Part shown: in pieces, positions 3,752 through 42,450 of the stretch
Position numbering within the stretch: position 1 is the first letter of the stretch
Layout: each line of letters opens with the position of its first letter
Source of the DNA: an uncultured Planctomycetaceae bacterium
GTDB lineage: Bacteria; Planctomycetota; Phycisphaerae; SM23-33
Direction of reading: 5' to 3'
Assembly: GCA_964428895.1 (NCBI GenBank)
Contig: CAYRZU010000002.1
Location: forward strand, 14,595-78,594
DNA: 64,000 nt
Program-made: the position numbers and the translations under genes
Notes under the pieces: model-generated
Database searches by the model: none
Seen by the model: only the letters and a program-made list of their open reading frames with translations
What the model was told of the DNA's origin: nothing

Positions 3752-6256
3752 CTAGTGTTCGAGCTGATTTGTACGCTCTTGGTACGTGTCGAAGATACTC
3801 CGGACCTTCAGACGTTTGCGGACCTCGGCCAATGTTGTCTCTTCGCTCGGGGTCAGTTCGATGGTGATCGGTAGACCGGGGCGGACGGATAGGAAGTTGT
3901 CACTGAAGCGGGCGTTGAAGCCCTCCAGTTCCAGCCAGGCCCACAAGGCTGGGCGGGCGGCCGAGAGCGTGACGGTGTAGGCACCCTCACGCTTGCCGCG
4001 GCGGACGGTGGCTCGCAGCTTGGGGTCTTGTAGTTCGATGTGCTTGGGGCGCACCAGCAGCACCAGGTTGCGGCTGACGACCTTGCCCTTGACCAGGAGT
4101 TCCAGCCAGAGCAGGAGGTTGCCGGCGCCGTGTTGGTCCGCGGCATCGCGCAGCTTGAGCGTGGTCACGCGGGTGTTGCCGTTGGCTTTGGCCCTCACCG
4201 GCGAACGGCCGTCCACGACCGTCTTTCCCGCGGCTGTGGTTAGGGTCCATTGCACCTTGCCGGTGGCCGGGGCGGCGGTGGTGTTGCTGACGTGCAGTTC
4301 GACCGTCTTGCGATCCATATCTTCCAGGCCGGTGACCAGCAGGGGCGAGTAGAACGCGCGGGCCATGTAGTGCAAGGCCTTCCAGCGGCCGAAATAGTCG
4401 AGCGACGACCACGTGGGGCCCGGCCAGGTGTCGTTGATCTGCCAGTAGAGGCTGCCCATGCAGCGCGGCATGTGGCGACGCCAGTGTTCGACCGCATACT
4501 TGATGGCCAGGCCTTGCTGGATCTGACTGAGCCAGATCGTATTTTCAAAGCCGACCGGCATGCGGAACCAACTGAGCATGTAGTGGGCAATCAGCGAGTT
4601 GCCGATGCCGCTTCGCTGGTGATGCTCCATCACGCGGCTGGTCAGGTTGCGGTCTTCGGGAACCGTGAACGTTTCGAGGGTGCGCGGCTCGGGGAAGCTC
4701 TGGAACCCGTACTCGCTGCAGAAGCGGTGCAGGCTGGTGCGGTACCACTCGAACGGTTCCTTGAGGTGCCAGACATTCCACACGTGGGCGTCGCCGCAGG
4801 CGGGATTGCTGGAGAATCTGCGGTCGCCGGTGGGCGAGAACTGACTCGACGGGATGTAGTCGATGCCGGGATGGTGCTTCTTGACCACGCCGGCCAGCAT
4901 CGTGTCGAAGAAGGGCTTGTACATTGCCCACGTCATGCGGAACGGGATGTCGTCCTTGACCAGGCCGCACATCTCGACTTCGTTATTGCCGCAGTAGAAG
5001 GCGATACATGGGTGCTGACGCAGCCGCTTGACGTTTTCGACGGCCTCGAGCTTGGCGTTTTCGAAGAAGGCAGGATCGTCCGTCGGATAGGCGGCGCACG
5101 CGTACATGAAGTCCTGCCAAATCATCAGGCCCAGCTCGTCGCAGAGATCGTAGAACGTGTCGTCTTCATAGATGCCGCCGCCCCAGACGCGCAGCATGTT
5201 CATGTTCGCCTCGGCGCAGCTTTGCAGCAGGTCGGCGTAGCGCTCCGGGGTGACGCGATTCTGAAACGCGTCGGCTGGAATCCAGTTGCCGCCTTTGGCG
5301 AAGAACGCCTGGCCGTTGACCTCGAAGTAGAACGACTGGCCCCAGCGATCGTTCTTGCGGATGTTCTTGATGGTCCGCAGGCCGATGCGGTGTTGCCGGC
5401 GGTCGAGCCGCTTTCCGTCGGCGCCAATGAGCTGAACATCGAGCGTATAGAGGTGCTGCGCCCCCATGCCGTTGGGCCACCAGAGCTTGGGGTCCTTGAT
5501 GGTCACCGCCGCTCGGCCGCGCCCCTTGCGCAAGGACACGATCTCCTCCGCGACGATCTTCTTGCCGTCGCGAAGCGTCACCACGGCCGTCAGGGACGAA
5601 CGCTTAACGACGTCCGCGGGAACCGTGATATCCAGGTCTGCGCGATTCTTGGCGTGCCTCTGGCGGATCTCCACGCCCCCCAGACGCGCGGTGTTGAAGG
5701 CGACCAGCCGAATCGACCGCCAGATGCCCGACGTCGCGCACATCGGACCCCAATCCCAGCCGAAGTTGCACTGCTCCTTGCGAAGATGATTGCTCCCCAC
5801 CAGCTTCGTGTCGTCGCCGACCGCCTCAAGCCGCCGCGCCTTGTCCCGGCGGATGCCCTCGACCACGGGCGAGGCGAAGGTGATGCGAAGCTCGTTGACG
5901 CCCGTAGTTAGATGCCGGGCGACGTCGAACTCCCAGGCCCGGAACATATTGTCCGTGCGCCCCACAACTCGCCCGTTGATCTCGATCTTGGCCAGCGTGT
6001 CCAAACCGTCACACTGCAGGAGTACGCAGTCATGGGCGAGCAGGGATCTCGACGCCTTGAAGGTACGGCTGTAAACCCAGTCCGTCTCACCGACCCAGAA
6101 CTGCTTCAGCTCGTTGTCACGGAAGAACGGATCGTCGATCGACCCGGCCGCCATCAGGTCCGTGTGAATACATCCTGGCACGGTCGCCGGAATGCTTTCG
6201 GTCGAGCCTTTCTGTGCGACCGTCCATCGGTCACCGCCCAGATCAAGCATCTGCAT
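3752..6256 (-). CDS. Beta-mannosidase (GH2)
   Basis: 834 aa. GH2 beta-mannosidase hallmarks: NMFRAWEFD N-terminal sugar-binding region, WGGGIYE, FYCGNNEVE (acid/base Glu), QDFMYACA. RBS GAAGGG. Confidence 0.85.
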   Translation of the reverse strand: MQMLDLGGDRWTVAQKGSTESIPATVPGCIHTDLMAAGSIDDPFFRDNELKQFWVGETDWVYSRTFKASRSLLAHDCVLLQCDGLDTLAKIEINGRVVGRTDNMFRAWEFDVARHLTTGVNELRITFASPVVEGIRRDKARRLEAVGDDTKLVGSNHLRKEQCNFGWDWGPMCATSGIWRSIRLVAFNTARLGGVEIRQRHAKNRADLDITVPADVVKRSSLTAVVTLRDGKKIVAEEIVSLRKGRGRAAVTIKDPKLWWPNGMGAQHLYTLDVQLIGADGKRLDRRQHRIGLRTIKNIRKNDRWGQSFYFEVNGQAFFAKGGNWIPADAFQNRVTPERYADLLQSCAEANMNMLRVWGGGIYEDDTFYDLCDELGLMIWQDFMYACAAYPTDDPAFFENAKLEAVENVKRLRQHPCIAFYCGNNEVEMCGLVKDDIPFRMTWAMYKPFFDTMLAGVVKKHHPGIDYIPSSQFSPTGDRRFSSNPACGDAHVWNVWHLKEPFEWYRTSLHRFCSEYGFQSFPEPRTLETFTVPEDRNLTSRVMEHHQRSGIGNSLIAHYMLSWFRMPVGFENTIWLSQIQQGLAIKYAVEHWRRHMPRCMGSLYWQINDTWPGPTWSSLDYFGRWKALHYMARAFYSPLLVTGLEDMDRKTVELHVSNTTAAPATGKVQWTLTTAAGKTVVDGRSPVRAKANGNTRVTTLKLRDAADQHGAGNLLLWLELLVKGKVVSRNLVLLVRPKHIELQDPKLRATVRRGKREGAYTVTLSAARPALWAWLELEGFNARFSDNFLSVRPGLPITIELTPSEETTLAEVRKRLKVRSIFDTYQERTNQLEH

Positions 6257-6411
6257 CGTGAAGTCCCTTCATCAAATCGCCATTTCCTTCGGAGATGTAG
6301 TGATAGGCTCTCAGGGCTCGTCCGTCCACCGGGGAATTGGCGCAATCGCCGGTTGCATGATGGCCTCAAGTTGGGCAGACTCTCCGGTCACCCGTAATGG
6401 AGAGCACAACC

Positions 6412-7449
6412 ATGACCCGATGGTCCATCGAGCAGGCGCAACAATGGTATGCCAAGCAGCCATGGCTGGTCGGCTGTAACTTCCTCCCCAGTTCGGCCGT
6501 CAATCAGTTGGAGATGTTCCAGGCCGATTCTTACGACCCGGCCACCATCGACAAGGAACTCGGCTGGGGGCAGGATCTGGGCTTCAACACCATGCGGGTC
6601 TACCTGCACGATCTGCTGTGGAGTGTCGACCGGGATGGGTTCATCGAACGCCTCGACGACTTCCTGGGCATCGCCGATCGGCACGGCATGAAGATCCTGC
6701 TGACGCTGTTCGACGACTGTCACCGCCCCGACCCCGTGGGCGGTCCGCAGTTGGCGCCGATCCGTGGCGTCCACAATTGCGGCTGGGCGCAAAGCCCGGG
6801 CTACAAGCTGGTCGAACAGTTTCATGACGGCACGATTTCCGAGGCCGAGCGCGAGCGGCTGCGCGAGTTCGTCACCGGCGTGATCACTCGCTTCAAAGAT
6901 GACGAGCGTGTCCTGATGTGGGACCTGTACAACGAGCCGGGCGGCAAGGCCAATCCGCTGCTGACGGCCGCGTGGGAGTGGGCCCGGGGGGTCGGGCCCT
7001 CCCAGCCGCTAACGGCCTGCCTGGAAGGCGCCGGCGGCGAAGACTGCATCGTCACCAATGCGGCCAATTCGGACGTGATCACGTTCCACTGCTACGACGG
7101 CCCGCTGCTGGAGAAGATCATCCTCGCCCACCAAGAGACCTTCGAAGGCCGTCCGATTGTCTGCACCGAGTACATGGCCCGGGAACGCGGGACGACGTTC
7201 CAGCACTCCATGCCGATCCTGAAGAAACACCACGTGGGCGCCATCAACTGGGGCTTCGTGGTTGGCAAGAGCCAAACCCATTTCAACTGGGAGACGGTCC
7301 TGAAGCTGGAGGACCTTCGGGACCAAGGCGCGTTCCTGAAGCCGGGCGAGGCGATTCCCGAGCCGGAACTGTGGTTCCACGACATTCTCCGCATGGACGG
7401 CACGCCGTTCAGCCAGGACGAGGTCGACTTCATCAAGAGCGTCACCTAA
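6412..7449 (+). CDS. Clan GH-A glycoside hydrolase (GH5-like; candidate beta-mannanase given the adjacent GH2 beta-mannosidase)
   Basis: DLYNEPGG matches the NEP acid/base motif of GH5-type TIM-barrel hydrolases. Second ATG (6412) preferred because of a GGAGAG RBS 7 nt upstream. Confidence 0.65.
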   Translation: MTRWSIEQAQQWYAKQPWLVGCNFLPSSAVNQLEMFQADSYDPATIDKELGWGQDLGFNTMRVYLHDLLWSVDRDGFIERLDDFLGIADRHGMKILLTLFDDCHRPDPVGGPQLAPIRGVHNCGWAQSPGYKLVEQFHDGTISEAERERLREFVTGVITRFKDDERVLMWDLYNEPGGKANPLLTAAWEWARGVGPSQPLTACLEGAGGEDCIVTNAANSDVITFHCYDGPLLEKIILAHQETFEGRPIVCTEYMARERGTTFQHSMPILKKHHVGAINWGFVVGKSQTHFNWETVLKLEDLRDQGAFLKPGEAIPEPELWFHDILRMDGTPFSQDEVDFIKSVT

Positions 7450-7579: not shown

Positions 7580-9748
7580 ATGTCTGACACGATGGAACAT
7601 ACATTGACTGATCCGGCCGCCTTTGAACTGCCGCCGGACCTTCAGCAGCTTCGAGATGAATGTCTCGCCCTGCACAAGCTCCCCAAGGGCGACCTGCCGG
7701 AGCAGACCATCGCCGTGGCGGAGGCCTGGAAGACCCATACCGACGATGAGCCGTGGGCGATCTGGAAGGCGCGTCGATTCGCGGCGCTGCTTGGTGCCAT
7801 GCCCGTTCCGCTCTCGCCCGGCGAGATCGTCATCGGCAAGCCCGGGCTGACCCGCGAGGAACTGCCCGCCGACCTGGCAGCACGCCTGGACGCGGCGCGG
7901 CAAACGTTGGAGTCGATGCCGAACGATCCCGGTGGTGATACGGGTCACCATCATCCGGATTACGCGGTCATGTTCCGCCGCGGTGTGGGCGGCACGTTGG
8001 ACGAAATCCGGCAGCGGCGTAGCGAGACGGACGACCCCGACAAAACCGTCTTCTACGACAGTTGCGAGATCGCCATGCAGGCGTTCTCCGAGTTCATCCT
8101 CAAGCTGTCGGCCGACTGCGAGGCGATGGTCACCGCCGACTCCGAACGCGCCGAGACGTGGACCAAGCTCGCCGAGATTTGTCGCAACATCTCTTCCGAC
8201 GCCCCGGCCACCTTCCACGAAGCCGTCCAACTGATGAACCTGATCATGCTGGCCGGGTGGTTCGCCGAGTACCACACCCAGAACAACTACGGCCGCATGG
8301 ACCAGACGCTGCGCAGTTTCTACGAGGCGGACCTCGCCGCCGGCACGCTCACCCAACGCGGGGCTTTCGAGTTGATCAGTTGCCTGCTGATCCAGCAGAA
8401 CCGCATGCACTGGCCGGGCGGGGCGGTGGGCGTGATCGTTGGCGGCATCGGCCCGGACGGCAAGGATGTCACCTGCGACCTGAGCTACCTGTGCCTGATG
8501 GCGCGGCTGGTCACGCATCTGGTGTACCCCACGGTGGGCGTGGCGTGGCATGAGGGAACGCCCTCTGAGTTGATGGACTTCTCAGTCAAGATGCTGGCCC
8601 ACGGCGTGGGGTGCCCGGCGTTCTTTAACGACCCGGTGATTTCCGAAGGTCTTCGGCAGCACGGCGTCAGCGAAGCCGATTCCCACAACTTCATGAACTC
8701 CACCTGCGTGGAGATCAAAGTGGCCGGGGCCTCCAACATCTGGGTGGCCTGTCCGTACTTCAACTGCACCGAGCCGCTCCTGGAGGCGATGGCCGGCGAA
8801 GCTGACGGCAGCCTCGACCCGGCGGCCGACTTCGATGAATTGCTGGAGCGCGTCAAGACGGGCCTGGCCAAGCGGCCGACCGACGCGGCCGAGTGGTGCA
8901 ACGACGTGTGGGACCAACGAATGCGCACGGGCCTTCAGCCGTTCGCCGACTGCATGATCTCCGACTGCCTGGAGCGCGGGCTGGACATCGACCACGGCGG
9001 CGCCCGCTACCACTGGGTGGAGCACTCGTGGGTGGGTCTGGCCAACCTCGTCGATAGCCTCACCGCGGTGCGGCATCTGGTGTACGAGACCGGCCGAATG
9101 TCGCTGGCGGAGTTCTACGCGGTTCTGCAGGCCAACTGGGAAGGCCACGAACCGCTGAAGCGCGAGATTGAGACCTCGCTACCCAAGTACGGCGTGGACG
9201 ATCCGGGCGTGGACGGCCTGGCCAAGACCATCGCTCACTTCCTGATGGACACCACCGAGACCAACGACATCGGCGGGCATCGCTACGTGCCGGGCTTCTT
9301 CTGCTGGATCATGCACAACGTGCTGGGCACCGACACCATGGCCACCCCGGACGGCCGCCATGCCGGCTGGCCGATGGCCGACGGCGCGGGCCCGGCCCAG
9401 GGCCGCGAGACCAACGGGCCGACGGCGGCGATTCTGTCGGCCACGTGCTGGGAGCACGAACGGGCGCTGGGGGGATTGGTCTTCAACGCCAAGTTCACGC
9501 GCGATTTCATGGCCAACCGCGAGAACCACGTGGCGCTTCGAGCCATGATCGAGACTTACCTGCGCCGCGGCGGATTCGAGATGCAGCTCAACGTCGTGGA
9601 TAACGCCGACCTTCGCGAAGCCCAGAAGCACCCCGACAAGTATCGCGACCTCGTTGTCCGTGTGGCCGGCTATTCGGATTACTTCGTCAACCTGGCCGAG
9701 AACATCCAGGACGAAGTCATCGCCCGCTCCGAATTCAACGTGGTCTAG
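7580..9748 (+). CDS. Glycyl radical enzyme, PFL-like/glycerol-dehydratase (eliminase) class
   Basis: 722 aa. C-terminal glycyl radical motif RVAGYSDYFVNLAENIQDEVIARSEF (compare RVSGYAV..L....Q.E.I.RT). Cys loop NSTCVEIK (C-x-E as in GRE eliminases). N-terminal WKARRFAALLGAMPVPLSPGEIVIGKPG is typical of GREs. RBS GGAGTG. Confidence 0.8.
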   Translation: MSDTMEHTLTDPAAFELPPDLQQLRDECLALHKLPKGDLPEQTIAVAEAWKTHTDDEPWAIWKARRFAALLGAMPVPLSPGEIVIGKPGLTREELPADLAARLDAARQTLESMPNDPGGDTGHHHPDYAVMFRRGVGGTLDEIRQRRSETDDPDKTVFYDSCEIAMQAFSEFILKLSADCEAMVTADSERAETWTKLAEICRNISSDAPATFHEAVQLMNLIMLAGWFAEYHTQNNYGRMDQTLRSFYEADLAAGTLTQRGAFELISCLLIQQNRMHWPGGAVGVIVGGIGPDGKDVTCDLSYLCLMARLVTHLVYPTVGVAWHEGTPSELMDFSVKMLAHGVGCPAFFNDPVISEGLRQHGVSEADSHNFMNSTCVEIKVAGASNIWVACPYFNCTEPLLEAMAGEADGSLDPAADFDELLERVKTGLAKRPTDAAEWCNDVWDQRMRTGLQPFADCMISDCLERGLDIDHGGARYHWVEHSWVGLANLVDSLTAVRHLVYETGRMSLAEFYAVLQANWEGHEPLKREIETSLPKYGVDDPGVDGLAKTIAHFLMDTTETNDIGGHRYVPGFFCWIMHNVLGTDTMATPDGRHAGWPMADGAGPAQGRETNGPTAAILSATCWEHERALGGLVFNAKFTRDFMANRENHVALRAMIETYLRRGGFEMQLNVVDNADLREAQKHPDKYRDLVVRVAGYSDYFVNLAENIQDEVIARSEFNVV

Positions 9749-11223
9749 TCTGCGGGCCGGCTGGCGCTGTCCCGAGCGTTGACGATGGCCTCGGCCTCGA
9801 TCAGGTTGATCGACGGGCAGGTGACGTACTCGACGTCGACGCTCTCGACCACGCCAGTGGCGCTCATCTTGAAGCTGCCGGTCAGCTCCAACCCAAACCT
9901 CGGCTGCGTGACCGTCAGGGCCGGGCCGCCCTCGGGCGGGTAGGTCAGCTCCATACCAATCGGCCCGTGGCCCTCTTCCAAGCGCTGGCGCCACCAGAGC
10001 ATTTCCTGGCGGAGCGTATCGGGCAGCCACTGGGCCTCGCCGAGCGCGGGCAGGTGGAGCTGTTCGGCGGCGGCGGCGGTGGCCCAGAAATCCTCGGCGT
10101 TGTCGAACCGTTGGCTGCGCGCGTGGGCGCGGGCGAGGTAGCTGGTGGCCATGGCGGCCATGGCCTCGTAGAACTTGGCGCCGGTGACGCGCACGTTGGG
10201 CGTGACCTGGGGATTGCCCTCGGCGTCCTTGGCCCACCTGGCCTCGGGCAGAATCATGTTGGCCCGGAACCAGGCCAGGAAGTCATCTTCCAGGGCGATG
10301 ATCTCGTCGGCCAGGGCCCGGGCCTTCTCGCCATTGGCGTTTGTGCTGATCTCATAAACGTACGCTTCGATCAACTTGCGGTGCTTGCCGCCCTCGCCGT
10401 CGTAGAGGTAGTGCAGCACGGACATGCTCTGCATGTAGCAGGCCCAGACCTTGCCCTCAGCCAGCAGTTGGTGCCAGCCGGCCCCGTCGATGTTTAACAG
10501 TTGCTCCAGGGGGATGAAGTTGGGCGATTCCATCACGGCGCTGTGGAGGTAGCTGACGGTCAGCACGCCGTCGACCCAGCCGTCACCGGTCCACATCAAA
10601 TTGAAGAACAGCGACCCGTGTCCTTCGTCCAGCCAGGTCGGCCAATGGCGATTGACGTTGCCGGCCTGGGCAATCTCCACGGCCGCGAACTGATGGAACA
10701 GTTCATGGTACATCAGCGGGCAGGAGACCATGCTGATGGCGCCGAAGTTGGCGTCGGAGGTCTGCATCATGAAGCGGGCGCCGACGCTATCGCCGTGGCC
10801 GCCCATGAACAGGCCCGGCATGGTCGGGTGCCCGCCGGCGGCGACGTAGTCTTCCTTGCTGCCGAACAGGAAGGCGAGCTTGGGGAAGTTGATGGGGAAG
10901 TGCTCGGCCTCGAAGCGGTCGGCGTAGTAGTCGTAGAGCGCTTCAATCCGCACCGCGAAGTCGTAGGTGGTCGCGTGGGCCATCTGGCTGTAGATGGAGA
11001 AGTGCCCGGTGCGGATGCCCGGCAGGCCGAAGACCGGATCGAGTCGTCGCCACCCATACGGCAGGGGCGCCTGGTCGGTCGTGGGTCGGCTGGTGGAGGC
11101 CTGGTCGGTGGTGGGCTGGCTGGCGGCTGGGTCGGTGGGCTGCTTGTCTTGGCAGCCTGGCGGCAGCGCGAACAGGCAAAGGGCCATCATCGGTAGCAGC
11201 TGCATCTTGAGCGATCGAGCCAT
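9745..11223 (-). CDS. Lipoprotein with HExxH motif (putative zinc metallopeptidase)
   Basis: True start ATG at 11223 (MARSLKMQLLPMMALCLFALPPGCQ, lipobox) with a GAGGA RBS. HELFH in MYHELFHQF. The 835-aa ORF call (to 12252) is an artefactual antisense extension. Confidence 0.55.
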   Translation of the reverse strand: MARSLKMQLLPMMALCLFALPPGCQDKQPTDPAASQPTTDQASTSRPTTDQAPLPYGWRRLDPVFGLPGIRTGHFSIYSQMAHATTYDFAVRIEALYDYYADRFEAEHFPINFPKLAFLFGSKEDYVAAGGHPTMPGLFMGGHGDSVGARFMMQTSDANFGAISMVSCPLMYHELFHQFAAVEIAQAGNVNRHWPTWLDEGHGSLFFNLMWTGDGWVDGVLTVSYLHSAVMESPNFIPLEQLLNIDGAGWHQLLAEGKVWACYMQSMSVLHYLYDGEGGKHRKLIEAYVYEISTNANGEKARALADEIIALEDDFLAWFRANMILPEARWAKDAEGNPQVTPNVRVTGAKFYEAMAAMATSYLARAHARSQRFDNAEDFWATAAAAEQLHLPALGEAQWLPDTLRQEMLWWRQRLEEGHGPIGMELTYPPEGGPALTVTQPRFGLELTGSFKMSATGVVESVDVEYVTCPSINLIEAEAIVNARDSASRPAD

Positions 11224-11418: not shown

Positions 11419-13812
11419 GTGCACATTATTGAAACCGACGCACCGATTCTCGAACCCGAAGACGGACTGATCCTGGGCAACGGCGATCTGTCGGTCAGTA
11501 TCTATCAGAAATCCGATTTGCTTATCTGGCGGTTCGGCAAGGTGGACGTGTGGGACCGCCGCCTGGACCTCGACGCCTGTCCCGCGCCCGCCCACATCGA
11601 CGAATTGGCCCGCGGCATCCGTGATGAAGGCTGGGTCAGCCACGAGTTCGTCTACGGCGAAGGCCAAGCCACGCGCGGCAAGCCAAAAGACGAAAAGCGG
11701 ATGAAGGAAATCTGCGACGGCTGGCCCGCTTACGCTCGTCGGCCCTATCCGTGCCCCAAGCCGGTCGGTGAACTGGCGATGCACCTGCCGGTCGACATGT
11801 TGGGCCAGCGGATCCATCAGCGGTTGACGATTGAGAAAGGCACAGCCGAGATCACGATCTCCTTCGATAACGGCGTGTCGATTGAGCTTGAGTGCTTCAT
11901 CGCGCCGTCGCCGAATGTGTTGGTGGTGCGATGGCAGGTGCATAACTGGAACGCCGATACCGCCATGGGCATCCACGGGCCGGTATGGTTTTCGCTCTAT
12001 CGCTGGGCCGACCCGCCGGTGGAGCAGTTGGCGGCCTCGCTTCACACCCGGGCCCGCTATCGCTACTTCTGGGGCTCGATCGAATCGGGCGAATGTACCA
12101 CGCTGCCCGGGCCCGAAATGCGAGAGCTGGACGGGCGACTCGTCATCGAGCAACGGTTCTATCCCGACCTGGAATTCACCGAGGGCTTTCGGACCATCCT
12201 GGCGCCTTACGTAACGAGCCTGGGTATTGAACGGGCCGATATCTACACGCAAGACGCCGTGCTCAATATCTTCGCCAACGAGGATGTGCTAAGTGGCGAG
12301 CTGGCCGTGGCTGTTTCGACCAGCACCGATGACGGCGGGGCCGAAGCGGAGTGTCAGCGGACCCGAGCGCTGCTCGAGCCGGGCCTGTCCGCGGCCACGG
12401 CCCAACTTGAAGACGCCACCGTCGCCTTGGCCGAAGAGTTCTGGGGCCAGTCGTCGGTGCAGATCGACGACCCTGTCCTGGAAGACGCCTGGTACGAGAT
12501 GCTGCACTTCCGCCGCTGCACGTGTCGGGGGGACGTGGTCGCGCCGGGGCTGGCCTTGCCCAGCACGGTTCGGGACTATTCCCTGTGGCACGGCGACTAC
12601 CACATGAACATCAACTACCAGATGGGGTTCTGGGGCGACTACGCGTCCAACCACGTCGACCTCGGCGACGCGTTCTTTCCCGGCATGGCCCACATGGTGG
12701 AGATCGGCCGCAAATTGGCGCGGGACTACTGGGGCTGTCGGGGCACCTTCATTCAGTTGGCGGGCTATCCGTTCCCGGTGGCGGGCGACCCTTACGGAAC
12801 GGGCGCGCTGTGCCGCATGACCTACATGACCGGCTGGGTGGCCGGCTACTACTGGTGGCGCTACCGCTACACCATGGACCGCGACTGGCTGGCCGAGACC
12901 GGCTACCCGGTCATTCGCGACTGCGCCCTGTTCTACGCCGACTTCCTGGAGAAGCGCGACGACGGCCTGTATCACGCCTGGCCCAGCATGCAGGGCGAAT
13001 CGATGTTCACCGGCAAGGTCGAAGACTACACCGATCAGCCGCAAGTGGTCCGCCACGCCCGTTACGGCTTGCAGTGCGCCGTCCGCGCGGCCGAGGCCCT
13101 GGACACGGACCCCGAGTATCGCGACCAGTGGCAGGACATCCTGGATAACCTCGTCACCACCGACGACCTCGACGCCCTCGGCTTCAGCGACGAGAAGAAG
13201 CGCCGCTACGCGCTGATCCAGCCGGCGTTTCTGGGCGCCGACATCGGCGACGGCCGAATTCCCGACAAACTCGACGAGCCGGACTATCTGGCCCCCAGCC
13301 GTAATGGCTGTGGGTTCTTGGCCTGGCCCACCATGATGCACATCCACAACGACGCCTTCGACCCCGAGCGCGACATCCCGACCTTTGCCGAGAACCTGCG
13401 GCGCTGGCGCCGCCCGGGCGGAATGATCCGCGCCTGGAACATGGCCGGGCACAGCTACATCGGCGCCTACGTGGAGAGCCTGGGGATGTTGGCGCCGCTG
13501 CAGGCGTTCCTGCTGCAAAGCTGGGACGAAGTGATTCGCATCTTCCCCCTCTGGAAGGCCGACATCGACGCGGCCTACACCAACCTGCGCGCCGAAGGCG
13601 CGTTCTTGGTCAGCGCATCCTGGAAAGGTGGCGCCCTCCAGTCGGCCACGATTCACGGCGAGCGGGGCGGGCCGTGTCGCCTCGAATGGCCATGGGACAG
13701 CGCGCCGGCCATTACGTGCGACGGCCAATCCGTGGATGTCACCGGCGAGGACCACGGGGTGGTCGCCTTCGACACCGAGGCCGGTCAGACCTACGACCTC
13801 AAGAAGGGGTGA
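11419..13812 (+). CDS. Putative glycoside hydrolase, GH95-like / six-hairpin superfamily
   Basis: 797 aa with a GTG start 5 nt after AGGAGG. N-terminal LILGNGDLSVSIY...W.RRLDL resembles the GH95 N-terminus (GNG.LG...W). Family call is tentative. Confidence 0.45.
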   Translation: MHIIETDAPILEPEDGLILGNGDLSVSIYQKSDLLIWRFGKVDVWDRRLDLDACPAPAHIDELARGIRDEGWVSHEFVYGEGQATRGKPKDEKRMKEICDGWPAYARRPYPCPKPVGELAMHLPVDMLGQRIHQRLTIEKGTAEITISFDNGVSIELECFIAPSPNVLVVRWQVHNWNADTAMGIHGPVWFSLYRWADPPVEQLAASLHTRARYRYFWGSIESGECTTLPGPEMRELDGRLVIEQRFYPDLEFTEGFRTILAPYVTSLGIERADIYTQDAVLNIFANEDVLSGELAVAVSTSTDDGGAEAECQRTRALLEPGLSAATAQLEDATVALAEEFWGQSSVQIDDPVLEDAWYEMLHFRRCTCRGDVVAPGLALPSTVRDYSLWHGDYHMNINYQMGFWGDYASNHVDLGDAFFPGMAHMVEIGRKLARDYWGCRGTFIQLAGYPFPVAGDPYGTGALCRMTYMTGWVAGYYWWRYRYTMDRDWLAETGYPVIRDCALFYADFLEKRDDGLYHAWPSMQGESMFTGKVEDYTDQPQVVRHARYGLQCAVRAAEALDTDPEYRDQWQDILDNLVTTDDLDALGFSDEKKRRYALIQPAFLGADIGDGRIPDKLDEPDYLAPSRNGCGFLAWPTMMHIHNDAFDPERDIPTFAENLRRWRRPGGMIRAWNMAGHSYIGAYVESLGMLAPLQAFLLQSWDEVIRIFPLWKADIDAAYTNLRAEGAFLVSASWKGGALQSATIHGERGGPCRLEWPWDSAPAITCDGQSVDVTGEDHGVVAFDTEAGQTYDLKKG

Positions 13813-14369: not shown

Positions 14370-14398
14370 TTGGCGGGAGGGGGTTTCCGTGCTAGAAT
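14370..14398 (+). promoter_or_regulatory. Sigma70-type promoter: -35 TTGGCG, 17-nt spacer, extended -10 TGCTAGAAT
   Basis: TTGGCG at 14370-14375, TG at 14390-14391, TAGAAT at 14393-14398, ATG at 14458. A G7 run lies in the 5'UTR at 14425-14431. Confidence 0.45.
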
Positions 14399-14457
14399 CA
14401 CGGTCTGGACGGAGTTCTGATCGTGGGGGGGCATTTCGAACACAAGGAGTGACTGTC

Positions 14458-16686
14458 ATGAGGCGAATCGTTTTCGCGATGGTGGCGCTATCTTTGGCGT
14501 CAGCGGCGTCGGCCGGTGTGGCGGCGGCGGATGACTATGACCTGACGTGGCTGGGCCTGGGCGGCGCGGACTTTATTAAGGACGACGGCACGGTCTACGC
14601 CGAGAGCTTCCAGATCGCCGACAACGATCTGGTCCTCGGCCGCAACCGCATCTTCTACGGCACGGCCAACAACTACGGCGACGCGTGGTGGGTCTCGGAC
14701 GGCACGACCACCACTCGAGTCGGTCTGTTCGACACCGACCACACCCGCAGCACCGACAATCAACAGAAGACCTACGTACTGGGCTTCTATGGTGGCGGGC
14801 AGTTCGCGGCCGGCGAGTCGGAGAAGTACCGTCCCGACGGCAGCAAGATTTCCAACACGCCCTGGGTGTATGACGGTACGCAGACCATCGCGTTGGGTCT
14901 GACCGGCGCCGTCTATACGGACGCCGGCGGGTACCTCTACCCCAGCCGCTGGGAAGGCGCCGCCAACGGCAACTTCCTGGGGATGAACACCATCTACAAC
15001 GGCGGATCCACCAACATGGGCACCGCCACGTGGGTCTACAACTACGCCACCGACACCCACACCAGCGTGGGATTGACCGGAGCGCAGTACATTCGCGATG
15101 ACGGCTACGTCAAGACCCGCGCCGGGCGCCTCTCTCCCGACGGCAACTACGCCTTCGGGCGGACCTATCTGTACAGCGGCTCAACGGAGAACGGCACGCA
15201 CGGCTGGCGGTATGACGTCAGCACCGACACCACGGTGCAAATCGGCCTGACCGGGGCGGGGTTCGTTCGCGACGACGGCTACATGGAAGTCGAGATCCGC
15301 CGCGGCAACGCGTCCGGTCAGCTCAACGGGCTATCCCGCCGCTACAGCGGCTCGACCGACATGGGCCGCGTGGCCTGGATCTTCGACGGGACCAGCACAA
15401 CCCAGATCAGCCCCACCGGCGCCGAGTTCAGCCGGGCCGATGGCTACCGATACGAAGACGCCTGGTACATCAACGCGTCCGGCCAGGTCGCCGGCGAAGC
15501 CACCACCTACGACGGCGCCGCCACCGGCGGCAAGCGGGCGTGGTTCTACAACGGCACGACCACGCAGGTCCTGGACGGCCTGCAGGGGGGGTACTTCGAG
15601 AAGTCCAACGGGCACAACCAAGCCCTGCCCAACGGCCTCAACGCGGCCGCTCAGATCACCGGCACGAGCTATCGCTACAACGCCTCGGACACCTACATCG
15701 GCCTGCAGGGCTGGTTCTACGACAGCGCCACCGATACCACCGTCGCCTTGGGCCTGACCGATCCCGCCTACACGCGGGTGTCCGACGACAAGCAGTATCA
15801 CTATCCCCACGAACTGAGCGCAACGGGACTCGTGCGCGGCAGCAGCGACCGGTACGACGGCCTGTTCAGCAAGGGCCGTTGGGTCTACGACTGGGACACC
15901 GACATGACCTACGAGTTGGCGTTCTCGACCCGCTCGGACGGTTACTATGACACCCCCAAGTTCGAGTTCACCAACGACGGCGACGGTCTGGTCGGCTACT
16001 ACGAGCTCTTCGATGCCTTTGACGTTTCGCAAGGCTATAGCTTGTTCTACTGGACCATCGACCGGGCCACCGATACCCCCACCTTCGTGGACCTGGAAGA
16101 CCGAACCGCCCTGGCGGCCATGGAAGACCTCTTCGCCCTCTACTACAAAGGCTGCGGCATGAACGCCGGCGCCTTATTCGCCGGCACGGGCACCATGGCC
16201 GACGGGTCGCAGGGCGCGTATCTGCTGACGCCGGTTGAGACGAGCGTCCCGGGCGACTTCGACGGCGACGGCGACGTTGACGCCGACGACGTCGACATCC
16301 TCTGCGCCAACATGGGCGGCGACCTGAATCCCTACGACGTCAACAGCGACGGCGTGGTGGATGAAGACGACATGATCTACCACATCGAGACGTTGGTCGA
16401 GTACGACACCAACGGCGACGGCACGGCCGACGGCAACGGAACGTATCGGGGCGACTTCAACCTCGACGGCGTGGTCAACGCCACCGACCTGCAGATCATG
16501 AAGGGCGGCTTCGGCGCGGTCGGTGGCTATGCCGACGGCAACGCCAACTGCGACACCGTGGTCAACGCCACCGACCTGCAGATTCTCAAGAGCACGTTCG
16601 GCCAGACCGCCTCGGCCGTGCCCGAACCGTTGACGGTCGGCCTGCTGGGCCTGGGCGGCCTGACGCTCTTGAGACGACGGAAGTAG
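14458..16686 (+). CDS. PEP-CTERM-anchored surface protein with about 10 degenerate ~50-aa tandem repeats and C-terminal dockerin-type Ca-binding repeats
   Basis: RBS AAGGAG. Signal peptide MRRIVFAMVALSLASAASAGVAAA. Repeats T..VGLTG..Y.RDDGY. C-terminal DFDGDGDVDADD...DFNLDGVVNATDLQIMKG...NCDTVVNATDLQILK (dockerin type I-like), then VPEPLTVGLLGLGGLTLLRRRK (PEP-CTERM). Confidence 0.8.
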   Translation: MRRIVFAMVALSLASAASAGVAAADDYDLTWLGLGGADFIKDDGTVYAESFQIADNDLVLGRNRIFYGTANNYGDAWWVSDGTTTTRVGLFDTDHTRSTDNQQKTYVLGFYGGGQFAAGESEKYRPDGSKISNTPWVYDGTQTIALGLTGAVYTDAGGYLYPSRWEGAANGNFLGMNTIYNGGSTNMGTATWVYNYATDTHTSVGLTGAQYIRDDGYVKTRAGRLSPDGNYAFGRTYLYSGSTENGTHGWRYDVSTDTTVQIGLTGAGFVRDDGYMEVEIRRGNASGQLNGLSRRYSGSTDMGRVAWIFDGTSTTQISPTGAEFSRADGYRYEDAWYINASGQVAGEATTYDGAATGGKRAWFYNGTTTQVLDGLQGGYFEKSNGHNQALPNGLNAAAQITGTSYRYNASDTYIGLQGWFYDSATDTTVALGLTDPAYTRVSDDKQYHYPHELSATGLVRGSSDRYDGLFSKGRWVYDWDTDMTYELAFSTRSDGYYDTPKFEFTNDGDGLVGYYELFDAFDVSQGYSLFYWTIDRATDTPTFVDLEDRTALAAMEDLFALYYKGCGMNAGALFAGTGTMADGSQGAYLLTPVETSVPGDFDGDGDVDADDVDILCANMGGDLNPYDVNSDGVVDEDDMIYHIETLVEYDTNGDGTADGNGTYRGDFNLDGVVNATDLQIMKGGFGAVGGYADGNANCDTVVNATDLQILKSTFGQTASAVPEPLTVGLLGLGGLTLLRRRK
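16254..16686 (+). repeat. Shared dockerin-like/PEP-CTERM C-terminal module, copy 1 (coding repeat family)
   Basis: Nucleotide- and protein-level similarity to 21516-21959, 22811-23249 and 24940-25272. Confidence 0.7.
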
Positions 16687-16708: not shown

Positions 16709-16740
16709 GCGGGCATCCTTCATGGATGCCCGCCTTCTGG
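16709..16740 (+). terminator. Perfect 10-bp stem hairpin after the PEP-CTERM gene (putative terminator)
   Basis: GCGGGCATCC (16709-16718), loop TTCAT, GGATGCCCGC (16724-16733), then CTTCT. Confidence 0.45.
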
Positions 16741-16787
16741 GGCCGCGTCTGGTACACTCCCAGCCTACCCACATCAGGATCGACGAT

Positions 16788-18188
16788 ATGCCCAAGCCGA
16801 ATCTGTTGTACATCATGACCGACCAGTGTCGCGCCGACGCCCTGGGTTGCAGCGGCGGATGGGTGCGGACGCCGAACTTGGATCGCATCGCGGCTGAGGG
16901 TGTGCGATTCACCAACGCGGTGACCAACTGTCCGATCTGCATCCCCGCGCGGGTGTCGCTGGCGACCGGCCGATATCCGCACAACACCGGCGTGTGGGAC
17001 AACTTCGAGTACGACATGCCGGCCGAATGGCCCACCTGGATGCAGGCCGTCCGCGAGGCCGGCTATCGCACCAGCCTGTTCGGCAAGACCCACCTCCACC
17101 ACCACAGCGGCGATCTGCGCGACCGCGAGCATCTGATCCGCGCCTACGGTATCGACGACATCGACGAAATCACCGGCCCGCGCGCCAGCACAGACTGCAC
17201 CTGCGCGATGACGGCGAACTGGGAGGCCAAAGGGCTCCTGAAGCCCTACCAGGCCGACTACGCCGAACGCTTCGCCAACAAGCCATGGGTCGTGCGCCCC
17301 TCCGTCCTGCCGCTGGAGCACTACGCCGACGTCTACGTCGGTCAGCAGGCCAAGCGCTATCTCGAAAGCTACCGCCGCGATCAGCCGTGGTGCTGTTGGG
17401 TGAGTTTCGGCGGCCCACATGAACCGTGGGACACCCCCGAGCCCTATGCCAGCATGTATCGGCCGGAGGATATGCCTCCGCCGGTCGGCTCGCGCGACGC
17501 GCTGATCGACGGCGCCGCCAAGGGCCACCTCGGCCGCGTGATGGCGCACTACGCCCCCGAGGCCCTCTCGGCCGACGACATCGCCGCGATGCGGGCCAAC
17601 TACGCCGGGAACGTTACGCTGATTGACGACCAGATCGGCGAGATTCTCGCCGCCATCGAGGCCCGGGGGGAACTGGACAACACCGTGATCGTCTTCTCTT
17701 CCGACCACGGCGAAATGAACGGCGATCACGGGCTGATCTACAAGATGCAGTTCCTCAACGGGGCCGTCCGCGTGCCGCTGCTGGTCCGCACCCCGGCCAC
17801 CGCCGCCGCGGGAGGCGGCGCGGTCTCCAACTCACCGGCGGAGTGGTTCGACATCGGGCCGACGCTGGTGGAACTGGCCGGCGGCGAACTGAAGCACCAA
17901 CAGTTCGCCCGTTCGCTGCTGCCGACGGTCAACGATCCGTATCGCCAGCACCGGCCGTTGGCGGTCTCCGAGTACGCGCGGGAAGTCATGATCATGGACG
18001 AACAATGGAAGCTTGCGGTCAACCGTGACGGCGAGCCGTACCTACTGTTCGACCAGGTCAACGATTCCGAAGAACTCATCAACCGCGTTGCCGACGCAGC
18101 CGTTGCCAACGTGATCGACCAGATGCGGGCCGAACTCCTCAGCCACCTACTGCAAACGCAGATTGACCGAGCCGGGCCCGGCGTGTAG
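16788..18188 (+). CDS. Formylglycine-dependent sulfatase (Cys-type)
   Basis: MPKPNLLYIMTDQCRADALG. CPICIPAR (C-x-P-x-R). GKTHLHH. Start ATG 16788 after AGGAT. Confidence 0.9.
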   Translation: MPKPNLLYIMTDQCRADALGCSGGWVRTPNLDRIAAEGVRFTNAVTNCPICIPARVSLATGRYPHNTGVWDNFEYDMPAEWPTWMQAVREAGYRTSLFGKTHLHHHSGDLRDREHLIRAYGIDDIDEITGPRASTDCTCAMTANWEAKGLLKPYQADYAERFANKPWVVRPSVLPLEHYADVYVGQQAKRYLESYRRDQPWCCWVSFGGPHEPWDTPEPYASMYRPEDMPPPVGSRDALIDGAAKGHLGRVMAHYAPEALSADDIAAMRANYAGNVTLIDDQIGEILAAIEARGELDNTVIVFSSDHGEMNGDHGLIYKMQFLNGAVRVPLLVRTPATAAAGGGAVSNSPAEWFDIGPTLVELAGGELKHQQFARSLLPTVNDPYRQHRPLAVSEYAREVMIMDEQWKLAVNRDGEPYLLFDQVNDSEELINRVADAAVANVIDQMRAELLSHLLQTQIDRAGPGV

Positions 18189-19024: not shown

Positions 19025-20350
19025 TTGGATCGGCCGAACATTCTCACCATCCTGGCCGACGACCTGGGCTGGGGCGACCTGGGCCTACACGGCTCAGACA
19101 TCCGCACGCCCGTCATCGACGCACTCGCCCAAGGCGGCGTGGAGCTCACCCAGCACTATGTGTGTCCCATGTGCACGCCTACGCGGGTGAGCCTGCTGAC
19201 CGGTCGGCACCCCGGCCGATTCGGGCCGCACGCGACGGTTCCTTCCAACGCGCCGGTCCTGCCGGATGGGTACTCCACGTTGGCCACGGTTCTGCGCGAC
19301 GCCGGTTACGACACCGGCCTGTTCGGCAAGTGGCATCTCGGGTCGGACCCACGGTACGGGCCCAACCAGTTCGGGTTCAACACCGGCTACGGCAGCCTCG
19401 CCGGCGGAGTCGACCCGTTCAACCACCGCTACAAGCGCGGCGAGTTCTCGGTGACATGGCACCGTAACGGCCAGTTGGTCGAGGAGCCCGGCCACGTGAC
19501 GGACTTGATCGTCCGCGAGGCCCGTCAGTGGATTGAAAGCCGCGATCGATCGTGGTTTGCCTACGTGCCCTTCACGGCTGTCCACGTTCCGGTCAAGCCG
19601 ACCGACGCATGGTTGGCCCAATACGAGGATGACACGTTCGACGACGATCCGCTCAGGGATCAGTCCTTCAAGAAATACGCCGCCTACACCAGCCACATGG
19701 ATCACGGCATTGGCCAACTGCTCGAATCGCTCGAACGGACGGGCCAGCGGGATAACACGTTCATCGTGTTCGCCTCCGACAACGGCGCCATTAACGATTG
19801 CGCCCTCCACAGCACGGACCAATACCCCGGCCACCAGGAGGCCTACCCGCGACTGGGCTCGAACGCGCCGTTCCGGGGTGTCAAAGCCCAGCTCTACGAA
19901 GGCGGCGTCCGCACGCCGACGGTCGTCAACTGGCGCGGGCGATTGTCGGCAGGGCAGATCGACCGGCCGGTGCAGGTGGTCGACTGGATGCCCACCCTCA
20001 CGGCGCTAACCGGGGCCCAGCCGGCCACCGATCCCCAATGGGACGGCCAGGACATTTGGCCGTTGATCGCCGGGGACGCGCCCGAGCCATCCGAGCGCAG
20101 CCTGTTCTGGAACTTCCACGGCGGCGACGCGCTGGGCATGCGCCACGGCGATTGGAAGCTGATCGTTCGCACCGTCGACGGCGCCGAGCATCGCGAGCTG
20201 TTCAACATTGCCGACGACCCCACCGAACAGCACGACCGCGTGTCCGACTGCCCGGCCATCGTCAACGATCTGGCTGACAGGATCGCCGAGCAGCGCACTC
20301 GCGACGGCACGAGCGCCCGGGGCGACGTCGATTCGCCCATGGTCTCCTAG
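19025..20350 (+). CDS. Formylglycine-dependent sulfatase (Cys-type)
   Basis: TTG start 7 nt after AGGAGA. NILTILADDLGWGDLG. CPMCTPTR. GKWHLG. Confidence 0.9.
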   Translation: MDRPNILTILADDLGWGDLGLHGSDIRTPVIDALAQGGVELTQHYVCPMCTPTRVSLLTGRHPGRFGPHATVPSNAPVLPDGYSTLATVLRDAGYDTGLFGKWHLGSDPRYGPNQFGFNTGYGSLAGGVDPFNHRYKRGEFSVTWHRNGQLVEEPGHVTDLIVREARQWIESRDRSWFAYVPFTAVHVPVKPTDAWLAQYEDDTFDDDPLRDQSFKKYAAYTSHMDHGIGQLLESLERTGQRDNTFIVFASDNGAINDCALHSTDQYPGHQEAYPRLGSNAPFRGVKAQLYEGGVRTPTVVNWRGRLSAGQIDRPVQVVDWMPTLTALTGAQPATDPQWDGQDIWPLIAGDAPEPSERSLFWNFHGGDALGMRHGDWKLIVRTVDGAEHRELFNIADDPTEQHDRVSDCPAIVNDLADRIAEQRTRDGTSARGDVDSPMVS

Positions 20351-20375
20351 TCCGGGGACGCCGCTGCGGCGAGCG

Positions 20376-20404
20376 CTTGTGTGTTCGCGATGGCGTGTTA
20401 TAAT
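20376..20404 (+). promoter_or_regulatory. Promoter with consensus extended -10 TGTTATAAT upstream of the FGE-domain PEP-CTERM gene
   Basis: TG at 20396-20397 and TATAAT at 20399-20404, with a weak -35 (TTGTGT). ATG at 20466 after AAGGAGAG. Confidence 0.45.
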
Positions 20405-20465
20405 GCGTTTCGCAGGATCCAAGTCTCTTGCGAGGGCGGGGACACCAACAGCAAGGAGAGAGACG

Positions 20466-21959: not shown

Positions 21960-21983
21960 AGGACACGAACAAAGGAGATGTGC

Positions 21984-42433: not shown

Positions 42434-42450
42434 AGAGGTCCAACGCCAAG

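Follow-up and report, generated by a model that had tools for sequence, protein, structure and literature searches.

The 64-kb stretch of planctomycetal DNA analysed here (the window) carries a genuine glycyl radical enzyme (GRE) gene, the product of which belongs to a distinct, uncharacterised clade of compact CXE-type GREs found in glycan-degrading bacteria, for which we use the working name family A. From its domains, predicted fold, invariant residues and clade membership, together with the absence of a local activase and the linkage of activases to family A genes in relatives, we infer that the enzyme forms its radical in the organism, what type of reaction it catalyses and to which class its substrate belongs; namely, it is probably a functional, trans-activated eliminase or dehydratase that cleaves a C-O bond, and whose substrate is none of those now assigned to GREs and is likely derived from a 6-deoxyhexose.

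A first-pass annotation, made from the letters of the DNA alone, had placed a 722-residue GRE in this open reading frame, and the frame is exactly as it stated (Table 1); the C-terminal glycyl-radical segment RVAGYSDYFVNLAENIQDEVIARSEF and the Cys loop TCVE that it had picked out are both found in the translation. The gene has a GC3 of 0.86 and a codon bias typical for the genes of the window. Pfam recognises a PFL-like domain (PF02901, 1.7e-96) and a Gly_radical domain (PF01228, 9.3e-28), both above their gathering scores and in the arrangement that defines the GRE superfamily, with the PFL-like barrel domain followed by the C-terminal glycyl-radical domain. The AlphaFold2 model of the protein (pLDDT 88, pTM 0.90) has the full GRE fold, a ten-stranded alpha/beta barrel, and Foldseek aligns it to solved GREs at TM 0.84-0.91, a range that takes in all of the solved eliminase and isomerase GREs, while identity to every solved GRE is only 22-26%. 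The protein is indeed shorter than typical eliminases, as had been remarked, although with 722 residues against 776-850 in the solved eliminases its compactness is modest; the biggest single difference from glycerol dehydratase in the alignment is the absence of about 55 residues at the N-terminus. The gene had also been read as the mark of an anaerobe, of which one part stands, in that the organism has a capacity for anaerobic metabolism, but a strictly anaerobic lifestyle is not implied by the gene.

Table 1. Features of the GRE locus, in window coordinates
Feature	Position	Strand	Details
GH2 beta-mannosidase	3752-6256	-	
GH5-like glycoside hydrolase	6397..7449	+	Pfam Cellulase/GH5 2.9e-6; 130 nt upstream of the GRE gene
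Family A GRE gene	7580..9748	+	ATG start, 722 aa; Pfam PFL-like and Gly_radical; AlphaFold2 model
Loop PGGDTGHHHPDY, residues 117-128	7928..7963	+	contains invariant H123; clade alignment
Cys loop NSTCVEIK, residues 373-380	8696..8719	+	predicted catalytic C376 and general base E378; clade alignment
Clade-specific segment PGFFCWIMH, residues 571-579	9290..9316	+	in place of PGLYPSS of glycerol dehydratase; alignment
Gly loop RVAGYSDYF, residues 694-702	9659..9685	+	radical site G697; clade alignment, Pfam Gly_radical
Convergent lipoprotein	9745..11223	-	lipobox and HELFH motif; stop overlaps the GRE stop
GH95 (alpha-L-fucosidase family)	11419..13812	+	Pfam GH95 catalytic and C-terminal domains

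Homology searches returned 664 proteins, the best 120 of which are 51-90% identical to the query and nearly all 700-760 residues long, with five shorter at 674-692 residues. No public contig in the collection searched encodes the identical protein. Family A is a large, tightly conserved clade of proteins of 716-735 residues, encoded in metagenome-assembled genomes (MAGs) of Planctomycetota, Lentisphaerae, Armatimonadota, Chloroflexota and Poribacteria. Most of the matches listed in the genome and metagenome scans are GREs from outside the clade, which served as controls, and among the matches listed these other GREs are at most about 44% identical to the query. Whole clades of PFL-like GREs are still without an assigned function (2026 GRE review), and we found no account of family A in the literature on GREs in Planctomycetes, in Poribacteria or in sulfatase and fucoidan contexts. 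A second compact group, family B, is also uncharacterised; it has its size class (717-735 residues) and host phyla in common with family A but differs in being about 30% identical to the query and in carrying C-T-E where family A has C-V-E (Cys loop GGCTETM, Gly loop R[IV]GGYSEYF). Family B genes lie in tandem with family A at three loci (L004, L089 and L172) and within one activase operon with it at a further one (L174/L175), and none is present in the window.

Residue conservation was assessed in an alignment of 46 family A members, with a mean column identity of 62%. In the Gly loop, R694, A696, G697, Y698, S699, D700, Y701 and F702 are invariant and V695 is nearly so; in the Cys loop, the same is true of N373, S374, T375, C376, V377, E378 and K380, with I379 nearly invariant. 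Likewise, no variation is seen at P117, G118, G119, D120, G122, H123, P126 and D127 of the loop around H123, or at F574, C575, W576 and H579 of the clade-specific segment. Decay of the Gly motif or of the catalytic Cys, which the annotation had named as fatal to its reading, is therefore not seen, G697 and C376 being invariant in all 46 members, and the CXE motif that marks GRE 1,2-eliminases and isomerases is present as an invariant C376-V-E378. The annotation had set the protein in this class and apart from pyruvate formate-lyase, and it was right to do so: sequence and predicted fold both resemble the eliminase and isomerase GREs, and pyruvate formate-lyase itself is ruled out by the single Cys (T-C-V-E, with no Cys-Cys pair) and by the TIGR01255 model, which gives just 92.9 bits where 994 are required and covers only the C-terminal quarter.

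When the active site is mapped by pairwise sequence alignment and on the predicted, ligand-free model, C376 and E378 fall on C433 and E435 of glycerol dehydratase and on the CVE loop of the choline lyase CutC, RVAG697YS falls on the Gly motifs of the same two enzymes, H123 on the glycerol dehydratase general acid H164, and F574 on its Y640. The H123 column holds Asp in CutC, whose leaving group requires no protonation, and His in Archaeoglobus fulgidus PFL2. In glycerol dehydratase, E435 acts as the base while H164, as the acid, supplies a proton to the hydroxyl that leaves, and the CXE motif is kept by all GRE eliminases and isomerases (2026 GRE review); the pairing of CXE and His cannot tell the former from GRE isomerases.

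The nearest characterised relatives are the glycerol dehydratase of Clostridium butyricum (1r8w/1r9d) and the propanediol dehydratase of Roseburia inulinivorans (5i2a/5i2g), with which the query has in common the ten-stranded barrel (TM 0.87-0.91), the RVAGYS Gly loop, the C-V-E Cys loop and a His at the H164 position. Together they imply a shared logic of radical dehydration. In this scheme, the radical on G697 would be generated by a canonical radical-SAM activase from another part of the genome and would pass to C376 as a thiyl radical able to take a hydrogen from the carbinol carbon of the substrate. E378 would deprotonate the hydroxyl of that carbon while H123 would protonate the vicinal oxygen leaving group, and the predicted outcome is a 1,2-elimination (a dehydration, or a related ring-opening isomerisation) in which C376 gives the hydrogen back. 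Such a reaction might, for example, convert a deoxy-aldonate into a 2-keto-3-deoxy acid by dehydrating its 2,3-diol, or dehydrate a terminal diol to an aldehyde.

It is, however, highly unlikely that the protein is simply an ordinary B12-independent glycerol/1,2-propanediol dehydratase acting on fucose-derived propanediol. The Roseburia propanediol dehydratase (5i2a; 2e-83, TM 0.89) and the glycerol dehydratase of Clostridium (1r8w) do head the matches, and genes of fucosidase families lie close by, but identity to these enzymes is just 24-26%, the query is about 65-120 residues shorter, and the TIGR01774 model for the PFL2/glycerol dehydratase subfamily gives 380.5 bits where 678.2 are required, leaving about 155 N-terminal profile positions unmatched. 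Comparison of the active sites gives a divided answer, in that the equivalents of the acid H164, the Cys C433 and the base E435 are kept and the glycerol/propanediol pocket is not. Four residues that we take to be diol contacts in the 1r9d structure, S282, Y339, D447 and Y640, are replaced in the query and the clade alike: S282 by T233 (clade consensus G), Y339 by a deletion, D447 by A390 (consensus T) and Y640 by F574. An equivalence between D447 and CutC T502 was considered and dropped, as it does not fit the ungapped loop alignment. The surroundings also differ from those of glycerol and propanediol dehydratase loci, since among the window ORFs, small ones included, there are no microcompartment shell or acylating aldehyde dehydrogenase genes, and no activase adjoins the GRE.

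More generally, the protein falls below every curated NCBIfam cut-off against which it was scored, whether of a subfamily or of an equivalog. Among the equivalogs, HpfG (sulfopropanediol dehydratase) comes out highest with 306 bits, well short of its cut-off of 1000; HypD gives 291 against 1100. The HpfG score and the abundance of sulfatases in the window are what might suggest a lyase for C-S or C-N bonds, akin to the isethionate/DHPS sulfo-lyases or choline lyase, whose substrate would be a sulfonate or a quaternary amine set free as sulfated glycans are broken down. We give this very little credence. HpfG, HpsG (256 bits against 1000) and CutC (280 against 1050) are all far under their cut-offs; IslA, IseG and HpsG are among the weakest of the eliminase matches, by sequence as well as by fold; and although CutC (5fau and others) has the CVE Cys loop, the RVAGYS Gly loop and the overall fold in common with the query, its Asp is replaced by H123. 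Sulfatases act on sulfate esters rather than sulfonates, and the window contains no sulfite reductase, sulfonate transporter or cut genes. In the IslA/IseG/HpsG lyases the sulfonate is anchored by an Arg/Gln/Arg triad (2026 GRE review).

Isomerases deserve somewhat more weight. YbiW and PflD (8id7, 8id0 and 8yjo) open the ring of 1,5-anhydro-hexitol-6-phosphates, and a GRE of this kind would cleave a ring C-O bond in a glycan-derived cyclic ether or anhydro-sugar and so yield a keto isomer. Isomerases, too, retain CXE (2026 GRE review); their substrates are carbohydrate-derived, which suits the sugar-rich setting of the gene, and their scores and fold are similar (250 bits for YbiW and 248 for PflD, with propanediol dehydratase at 284; TM 0.87). 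We nevertheless consider this assignment rather unlikely, since YbiW and PflD, at 24-25% identity, resemble the query no more than the other classes do, NF007437, the model for the PflD type, gives 279 bits against 1109, and there is no sign of a phosphorylated substrate or of 'anhydroglycolysis' partners, with no kinase, PTS or aldolase gene adjoining the GRE gene. The aldehyde dehydrogenase and SDR partners found in relatives suit the products of a dehydration better. Over its N-terminal third the query is matched best by one further GRE, A. fulgidus PFL2 (2f3o; 2.5e-16), whose 776 residues make it comparably short, but which is about 25% identical (TM 0.84) and comes from an archaeal hyperthermophilic lineage; its function is debated, and it too is an environmental GRE to which no substrate has been assigned (2026 GRE review).

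The GH2 and GH5-like genes upstream and the convergent lipoprotein downstream are as the annotation had described them, and the glycan and sulfated-glycan context that it proposed is borne out by Pfam annotation of the window ORFs. The lipoprotein has no match in Pfam or NCBIfam. The assignment to Planctomycetota rests on an 87%-identical GH2 protein from a 'Planctomycetota bacterium' MAG. The 130-nt gap between the GH5-like gene and the GRE gene holds no promoter-like or terminator-like site, and the two may possibly be co-transcribed; nor were promoter or terminator signals detected elsewhere around the GRE gene, and the 64-kb window contains no Rfam family.

Among relatives, the gene for an 80%-identical homologue (P0007) is surrounded by GH29 and GH95 glycoside hydrolases, an aldo-keto reductase and an Amidohydro_2 protein, and in the window, too, a GH95 gene lies near the GRE gene. 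Two other loci (L172 and L087) have a common order of 2-hydroxyacid dehydrogenase, FAH-family hydrolase, aldehyde dehydrogenase and family A, with family B able to stand immediately before the last; at L172 an extended SDR, an SDR and an Amidohydro_2 gene come after family A, and at L004 and L013 family A is followed by an extended SDR and an SDR. In NCBIfam, the FAH-family protein comes closest to 2,4-didehydro-3-deoxy-L-rhamnonate hydrolase, with 217 bits, which is below the cut-off of 500. Neither the window gene nor the genes most closely related to it (78-90% identical) belong to this SDR/FAH/aldehyde-dehydrogenase operon, and their neighbourhoods vary; clustering of neighbours across the clade loci yielded no universally conserved partner. 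URO-D-like genes, which occur near clade GREs or activases at about nine loci, were considered as a partner and set aside, their density being similar to the roughly one per 32 kb of the window. Because of the gene neighbourhoods of these relatives, we regard a metabolite of fucose- or rhamnose-type (6-deoxyhexose) glycan catabolism as the likeliest substrate class. The annotation had offered a deoxy-sugar-derived diol or a sulfonate, while noting that the sequence does not say which; we agree on the latter point, but it is the deoxy-sugar side that fits the relatives, and the sulfonate gains no support from the equivalog models.

That GREs normally adjoin their activase, as the annotation assumed, is upheld by the controls: among the loci listed, 94 are 8 kb or longer and encode a GRE from outside the clade, and 79 of these carry one. 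In the window, the report of no CxxxCxxC protein was accurate, in that no window ORF has an N-terminal CxxxCxxC motif; Radical_SAM (Pfam) has no match among the roughly 44 ORFs, and a profile HMM of 49 GRE activases, run over all six frames of the 64 kb, has no hit at E<=10. The same is true of nearly the whole clade, an activase being present at one of 23 long family A loci and the other 22 having none within about 10 kb. It could be proposed from this that the protein is a true orphan, a non-radical or decaying GRE homologue with no activase in its genome that is either inactive or has a radical-independent role, but such a state is scarcely credible for a clade so strongly conserved, whose Gly, Cys and Glu residues and complete Gly and Cys loops are invariant across phyla, and for a gene of normal codon bias. 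Furthermore, canonical activases share an operon with family A at three loci, L098, L167 (in the order GRE760, family A, activase) and L174/L175 (family B, activase, family A), and pass TIGR02494 with 321-355 bits against a cut-off of 174.

In two further cases the activase is found elsewhere in the same MAG. Lentisphaerae RIFOXYB12_FULL_65_16 has a family A protein (P0035) and a stand-alone activase (P0213) with a common locus-tag prefix, and Armatimonadetes CG2_30_59_28 has an unlinked family A GRE (L007) alongside an activase that adjoins a second compact GRE. A Radical_SAM gene 1.2 kb from an 84%-identical homologue (L001) was rejected as an activase, having no TIGR02494 or PflA match and best matches that are weak and unrelated. 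The 'orphan' GRE of the annotation is thus without a local activase, as claimed, and yet is no anomaly, because the unlinked state is a clade-wide habit explained by canonical activases encoded in trans; absence from the locus is normal for family A, the activase usually lying elsewhere in the genome, and presents no paradox. Family A in this way breaks the gene-neighbourhood rule, of a GRE beside its activase, that is used in GRE genome mining.

Returning to the trans-activated eliminase, a bolder version, which we regard as possible though unlikely, is that family A, alone or with co-operonic family B, is a radical dehydratase for a substrate class new to GREs (a sugar acid or other 6-deoxyhexose intermediate), replacing the enolase-type aldonate dehydratase, an enzyme that is missing from the L172/L087-type operons. 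If true, anaerobic Planctomycetota, Lentisphaerae and Armatimonadota would have a GRE-dependent route for the carbon of fucoidan and rhamnan, and a single activase would serve several GRE paralogues dispersed within glycan-utilisation loci. In practical terms, the analysis yields a definition of the clade, the motifs that mark it and the activases to be co-expressed with it (those of L167, L175 and L098). To our knowledge, all PFL-like GREs of assigned function come from gut or model bacteria, whereas family A is abundant among environmental glycan degraders, inside sulfated-glycan loci, and its substrate, if identified, would define a new anaerobic step in the turnover of marine and sediment polysaccharides.

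The open reading frame, which starts with ATG and encodes a glycyl radical enzyme (GRE) of 722 residues, has a GC3 of 0.86, matching the other real genes of the window (window GC 63-66%). The first-pass annotation had described this GRE and quoted its glycyl and cysteine motifs; the frame and all of these motifs were located, the Pfam domains agree with them (table), and overall its observation is accurate and its interpretation sound. An AlphaFold2 model built from 46 clade sequences (pLDDT 88, pTM 0.90) matches every solved eliminase, isomerase and decarboxylase GRE with TM scores of 0.84-0.91 at only 19-26% identity, the predicted fold being that of a complete GRE.

A homology search returned 664 relatives, the best 120 of which are 51-90% identical, almost all 700-760 residues long, and come from MAGs of Planctomycetota, Lentisphaerae, Armatimonadota, Chloroflexota and Poribacteria. 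In genome and metagenome scans, among the matches listed, clade members (family A, compact GREs of 716-735 residues) are at least 49% identical to the query; below them lies a gap holding a few sequences at 38-44%, with the remaining GREs at or below about 36%. Across an alignment of 46 members, mean column identity is 62%, with invariant elements in the N-terminal half (GGDxGH123, H232, R239/D241), around the Cys loop (NSTC376VE378xK380, W388-V389) and in the C-terminal half (W479xE481xS483, F574-C575-W576xxH579, R694xAG697YSDYF). Relative to glycerol dehydratase, the smaller size is accounted for by a deletion of about 55 residues in the N-terminal region, where query residues 94-119 match residues 80-160, and there are also short internal deletions, one of which removes the loop bearing Y339.

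Glycerol dehydratase C433, E435 and H164 align with C376, E378 and H123 of the query; according to a 2026 GRE review, E435 serves as base towards the hydroxyl of the substrate, and the hydroxyl that departs is protonated by H164 as the acid. At the H123 column A. fulgidus PFL2 also has histidine, whereas CutC, which expels trimethylamine, has aspartate, and the invariance of this histidine in the clade favours C-O cleavage. Four residues that contact glycerol in 1r9d are lost from the query and its clade, S282 being replaced by Thr or Gly, Y339 deleted, D447 replaced by Ala or Thr and Y640 by Phe, and judging from these changes the pocket is not of the glycerol/propanediol dehydratase type. 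Eliminase and isomerase chemistry are inseparable by sequence because both classes keep the CXE motif (2026 GRE review).

The query scores above the cut-off of no curated NCBIfam model (table), so the source annotations carried by relatives, 'pyruvate-formate lyase' and 'hydroxyproline dehydratase', are not supported. Among characterised enzymes, propanediol dehydratase and glycerol dehydratase come nearest to the query; CutC, YbiW/PflD and the archaeal PFL2, itself unassigned, come next, at much the same distance. Since the query carries the hallmarks of both the GRE superfamily and the CXE class, falls below the curated subfamily and equivalog thresholds, lacks the diol-contact residues and belongs to a clade with no description in the literature searched, we regard its clade as new and uncharacterised within the GREs, many clades of which are still without assignment (2026 GRE review).

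Features of the window, of its GRE and of relatives' loci (L numbers, contig pieces)
Feature	Position	Strand	Evidence or remark
GRE gene	7580-9748	+	
PFL-like domain	residues 120-583		Pfam 1.7e-96
Gly_radical domain	residues 600-703		Pfam 9.3e-28
Cys loop	residues 373-380		NSTCVEIK
Gly loop	residues 694-702		RVAGYSDYF
TIGR01774 (PFL2/glycerol dehydratase subfamily)			NCBIfam, 380 bits, cut-off 678
HpfG equivalog			NCBIfam, 306 bits, cut-off 1000
HypD equivalog			NCBIfam, 291 bits, cut-off 1100
CutC equivalog			NCBIfam, 280 bits, cut-off 1050
PflD-type equivalog			NCBIfam, 279 bits, cut-off 1109
PFL (TIGR01255)			NCBIfam, 93 bits, cut-off 994
Lipoprotein	9745-11223	-	492 aa
Cys-type sulfatases	16722-18188, 19025-20350, 41048-42433, 52716-54104, 54119-55591, 61934-63361	+, +, +, -, -, +	CxPxR at about residue 50-72
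Secreted dockerin type I and PEP-CTERM proteins	14389-16686, 20208-21959 (FGE-sulfatase fusion), 21978-23249, 23368-25272		
PanD-like ORF	61563-61919		
URO-D-like genes (uroporphyrinogen decarboxylase/MtaA-type fold)	3-503, 42394-43557	+, +	
Family B GREs	L004 7817-9982; L172 7528-9681; L089 2329-4491; L170 7783-9978; L175 1045-3204		
Third GRE type	L167 5367-7649		760 aa
Non-activase cluster	L001 6969-13700	-	
Recurrent family A operon	L172 3554-15673; L087 6508-12133; L004 10001-13810; L013 6017-9830		

The first-pass annotation had found no activase in the window, and motif, Pfam and profile searches are all negative: there is no N-terminal CxxxCxxC among window ORFs of at least 70 residues, no Radical_SAM match among the roughly 44 ORFs scanned with Pfam, and nothing at E<=10 in six frames of the 64-kb window with a profile of 49 GRE activases encoded beside other GREs. 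Its premise that a GRE normally sits beside its activase also holds, as 79 of 94 non-clade GRE loci of at least 8 kb, drawn as a control from the same scans among the matches listed, contain one. The corresponding figure for clade loci of at least 8 kb, the window counted in, is 1 of 23 (Fisher p = 5e-13), and the unlinked state is therefore a property of the clade and not of the window alone; about 342 kb of flanking DNA from the first 27 clade loci holds one activase.

In three relatives the activase is part of the GRE operon, its gene overlapping the stop codon of the clade GRE in L098, following it in L167 (760-residue GRE, clade GRE P0020, activase) and preceding it in L174/L175 (family B GRE, activase, clade GRE P0052), the last picked without regard to activase content. 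These operonic activases score 321-355 bits against the activase model TIGR02494 (cut-off 174). Encoding in trans is directly visible in two MAGs: in Lentisphaerae RIFOXYB12_FULL_65_16 the GRE P0035 shares the locus-tag prefix A3K19 with a solitary activase, P0213, amid housekeeping genes, and in Armatimonadetes CG2_30_59_28 the clade GRE is unlinked (L007) and the activase P0221 adjoins a second compact GRE. GRE paralogues lie in tandem or nearby in L004, L015, L089, L167 and L172, and in the simplest model one activase per genome would serve several dispersed paralogues. The proposed 'orphan' status is thus true locally, and statistically striking clade-wide, but does not extend to true orphanhood, as canonical activases encoded in trans explain the local absence.

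Several other genes accompany the relatives. Family B GREs (717-735 residues, Cys loop GGCTETM, Gly loop R[IV]GGYSEYF) are about 30% identical to the query, uncharacterised, and placed in tandem with family A or in a common activase operon (L174/L175). The third GRE type (Gly loop RVGGFSARF) precedes the family A and activase genes of L167 in one operon with them, below an AraC-type regulator. URO-D-like genes occur within 10 kb of compact GREs or activases in L006, L010, L012, L014, L086 (two copies), L091, L167 and L170; the window has them at a similar density, and their recurrence is thus no proof of enrichment. Beside an 84%-identical homologue, the L001 cluster encodes a generic radical-SAM protein, DUF169, 4HBT and FmdE proteins and a number of Fe-S ATPases of CbiA/ParA type, possibly a set for maturing metal clusters.

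The neighbours named in the first-pass annotation are present: a GH2 beta-mannosidase, whose nearest named relative (87% identical) is from a Planctomycetota MAG, a GH5-like gene that shares the strand of the GRE and lies 130 nt upstream of it, and a lipoprotein gene convergent with the GRE, the two stop codons overlapping. The lipoprotein has a HELFH zinc-protease motif and no Pfam or NCBIfam match. A GH95 gene also lies beside the GRE. Elsewhere the window is given over to the degradation of sulfated glycans, with GH20, GH32, GH116, GH127 and GH130 enzymes, a heparinase II/III-like lyase, PEP-CTERM/dockerin proteins and six sulfatases. In five of the six the sulfatase domain runs from the very start with no signal peptide (from residue 26 in the first), which suggests desulfation in the cytoplasm. 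The window encodes no anaerobic sulfatase-maturating radical-SAM enzyme, and its sole FGE-sulfatase domain is fused to a dockerin protein; the pairing of dockerin with PEP-CTERM, cellulosome-type with exosortase-type sorting signals, is unusual. A PanD-like (aspartate 1-decarboxylase) ORF sits amid the sulfatase genes, and positions 1-2000 have a GC of 0.56 against about 0.65, with no ORF in 503-1759.

Comparison across clade loci revealed no universal neighbour. One module recurs: in both L172 (Lentisphaerae) and L087 (metagenome) a 2-hydroxyacid dehydrogenase gene comes first, then those for an FAH-family hydrolase and an aldehyde dehydrogenase, then [family B GRE] and the clade GRE, with neighbour proteins 65-69% identical between the loci. 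In L172 the series goes on with genes for an extended SDR, an SDR and Amidohydro_2, and an extended SDR and then an SDR also follow the clade GRE in L004 and L013. For the FAH protein, NCBIfam gives 2,4-didehydro-3-deoxy-L-rhamnonate hydrolase as the top match (217 bits, below the cut-off of 500). Set against the non-phosphorylative L-fucose and L-rhamnose pathways, this module (sugar dehydrogenases, lactonase, diketo-acid hydrolase, lactaldehyde/aldehyde dehydrogenase) would want only the aldonate dehydratase, and the recurrent operon resembles such a 6-deoxyhexose pathway without the usual dehydratase. GRE-type dehydration of a 2,3-diol beside a carboxylate would give a 2-keto-3-deoxy acid; alternatively, a terminal diol would be dehydrated to a product feeding the aldehyde dehydrogenase. 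The 80%-identical P0007 is surrounded by GH29, GH95, aldo-keto reductase and Amidohydro_2 genes, and neither the window's GRE gene nor those most similar to it lie in the FAH/aldehyde dehydrogenase/SDR operon. Gene context is suggestive, not proof, of a 6-deoxyhexose-type substrate for the clade, whose GRE is a good enzyme-discovery target tied to anaerobic catabolism of fucose/rhamnose-type glycans in Planctomycetota and their allies.
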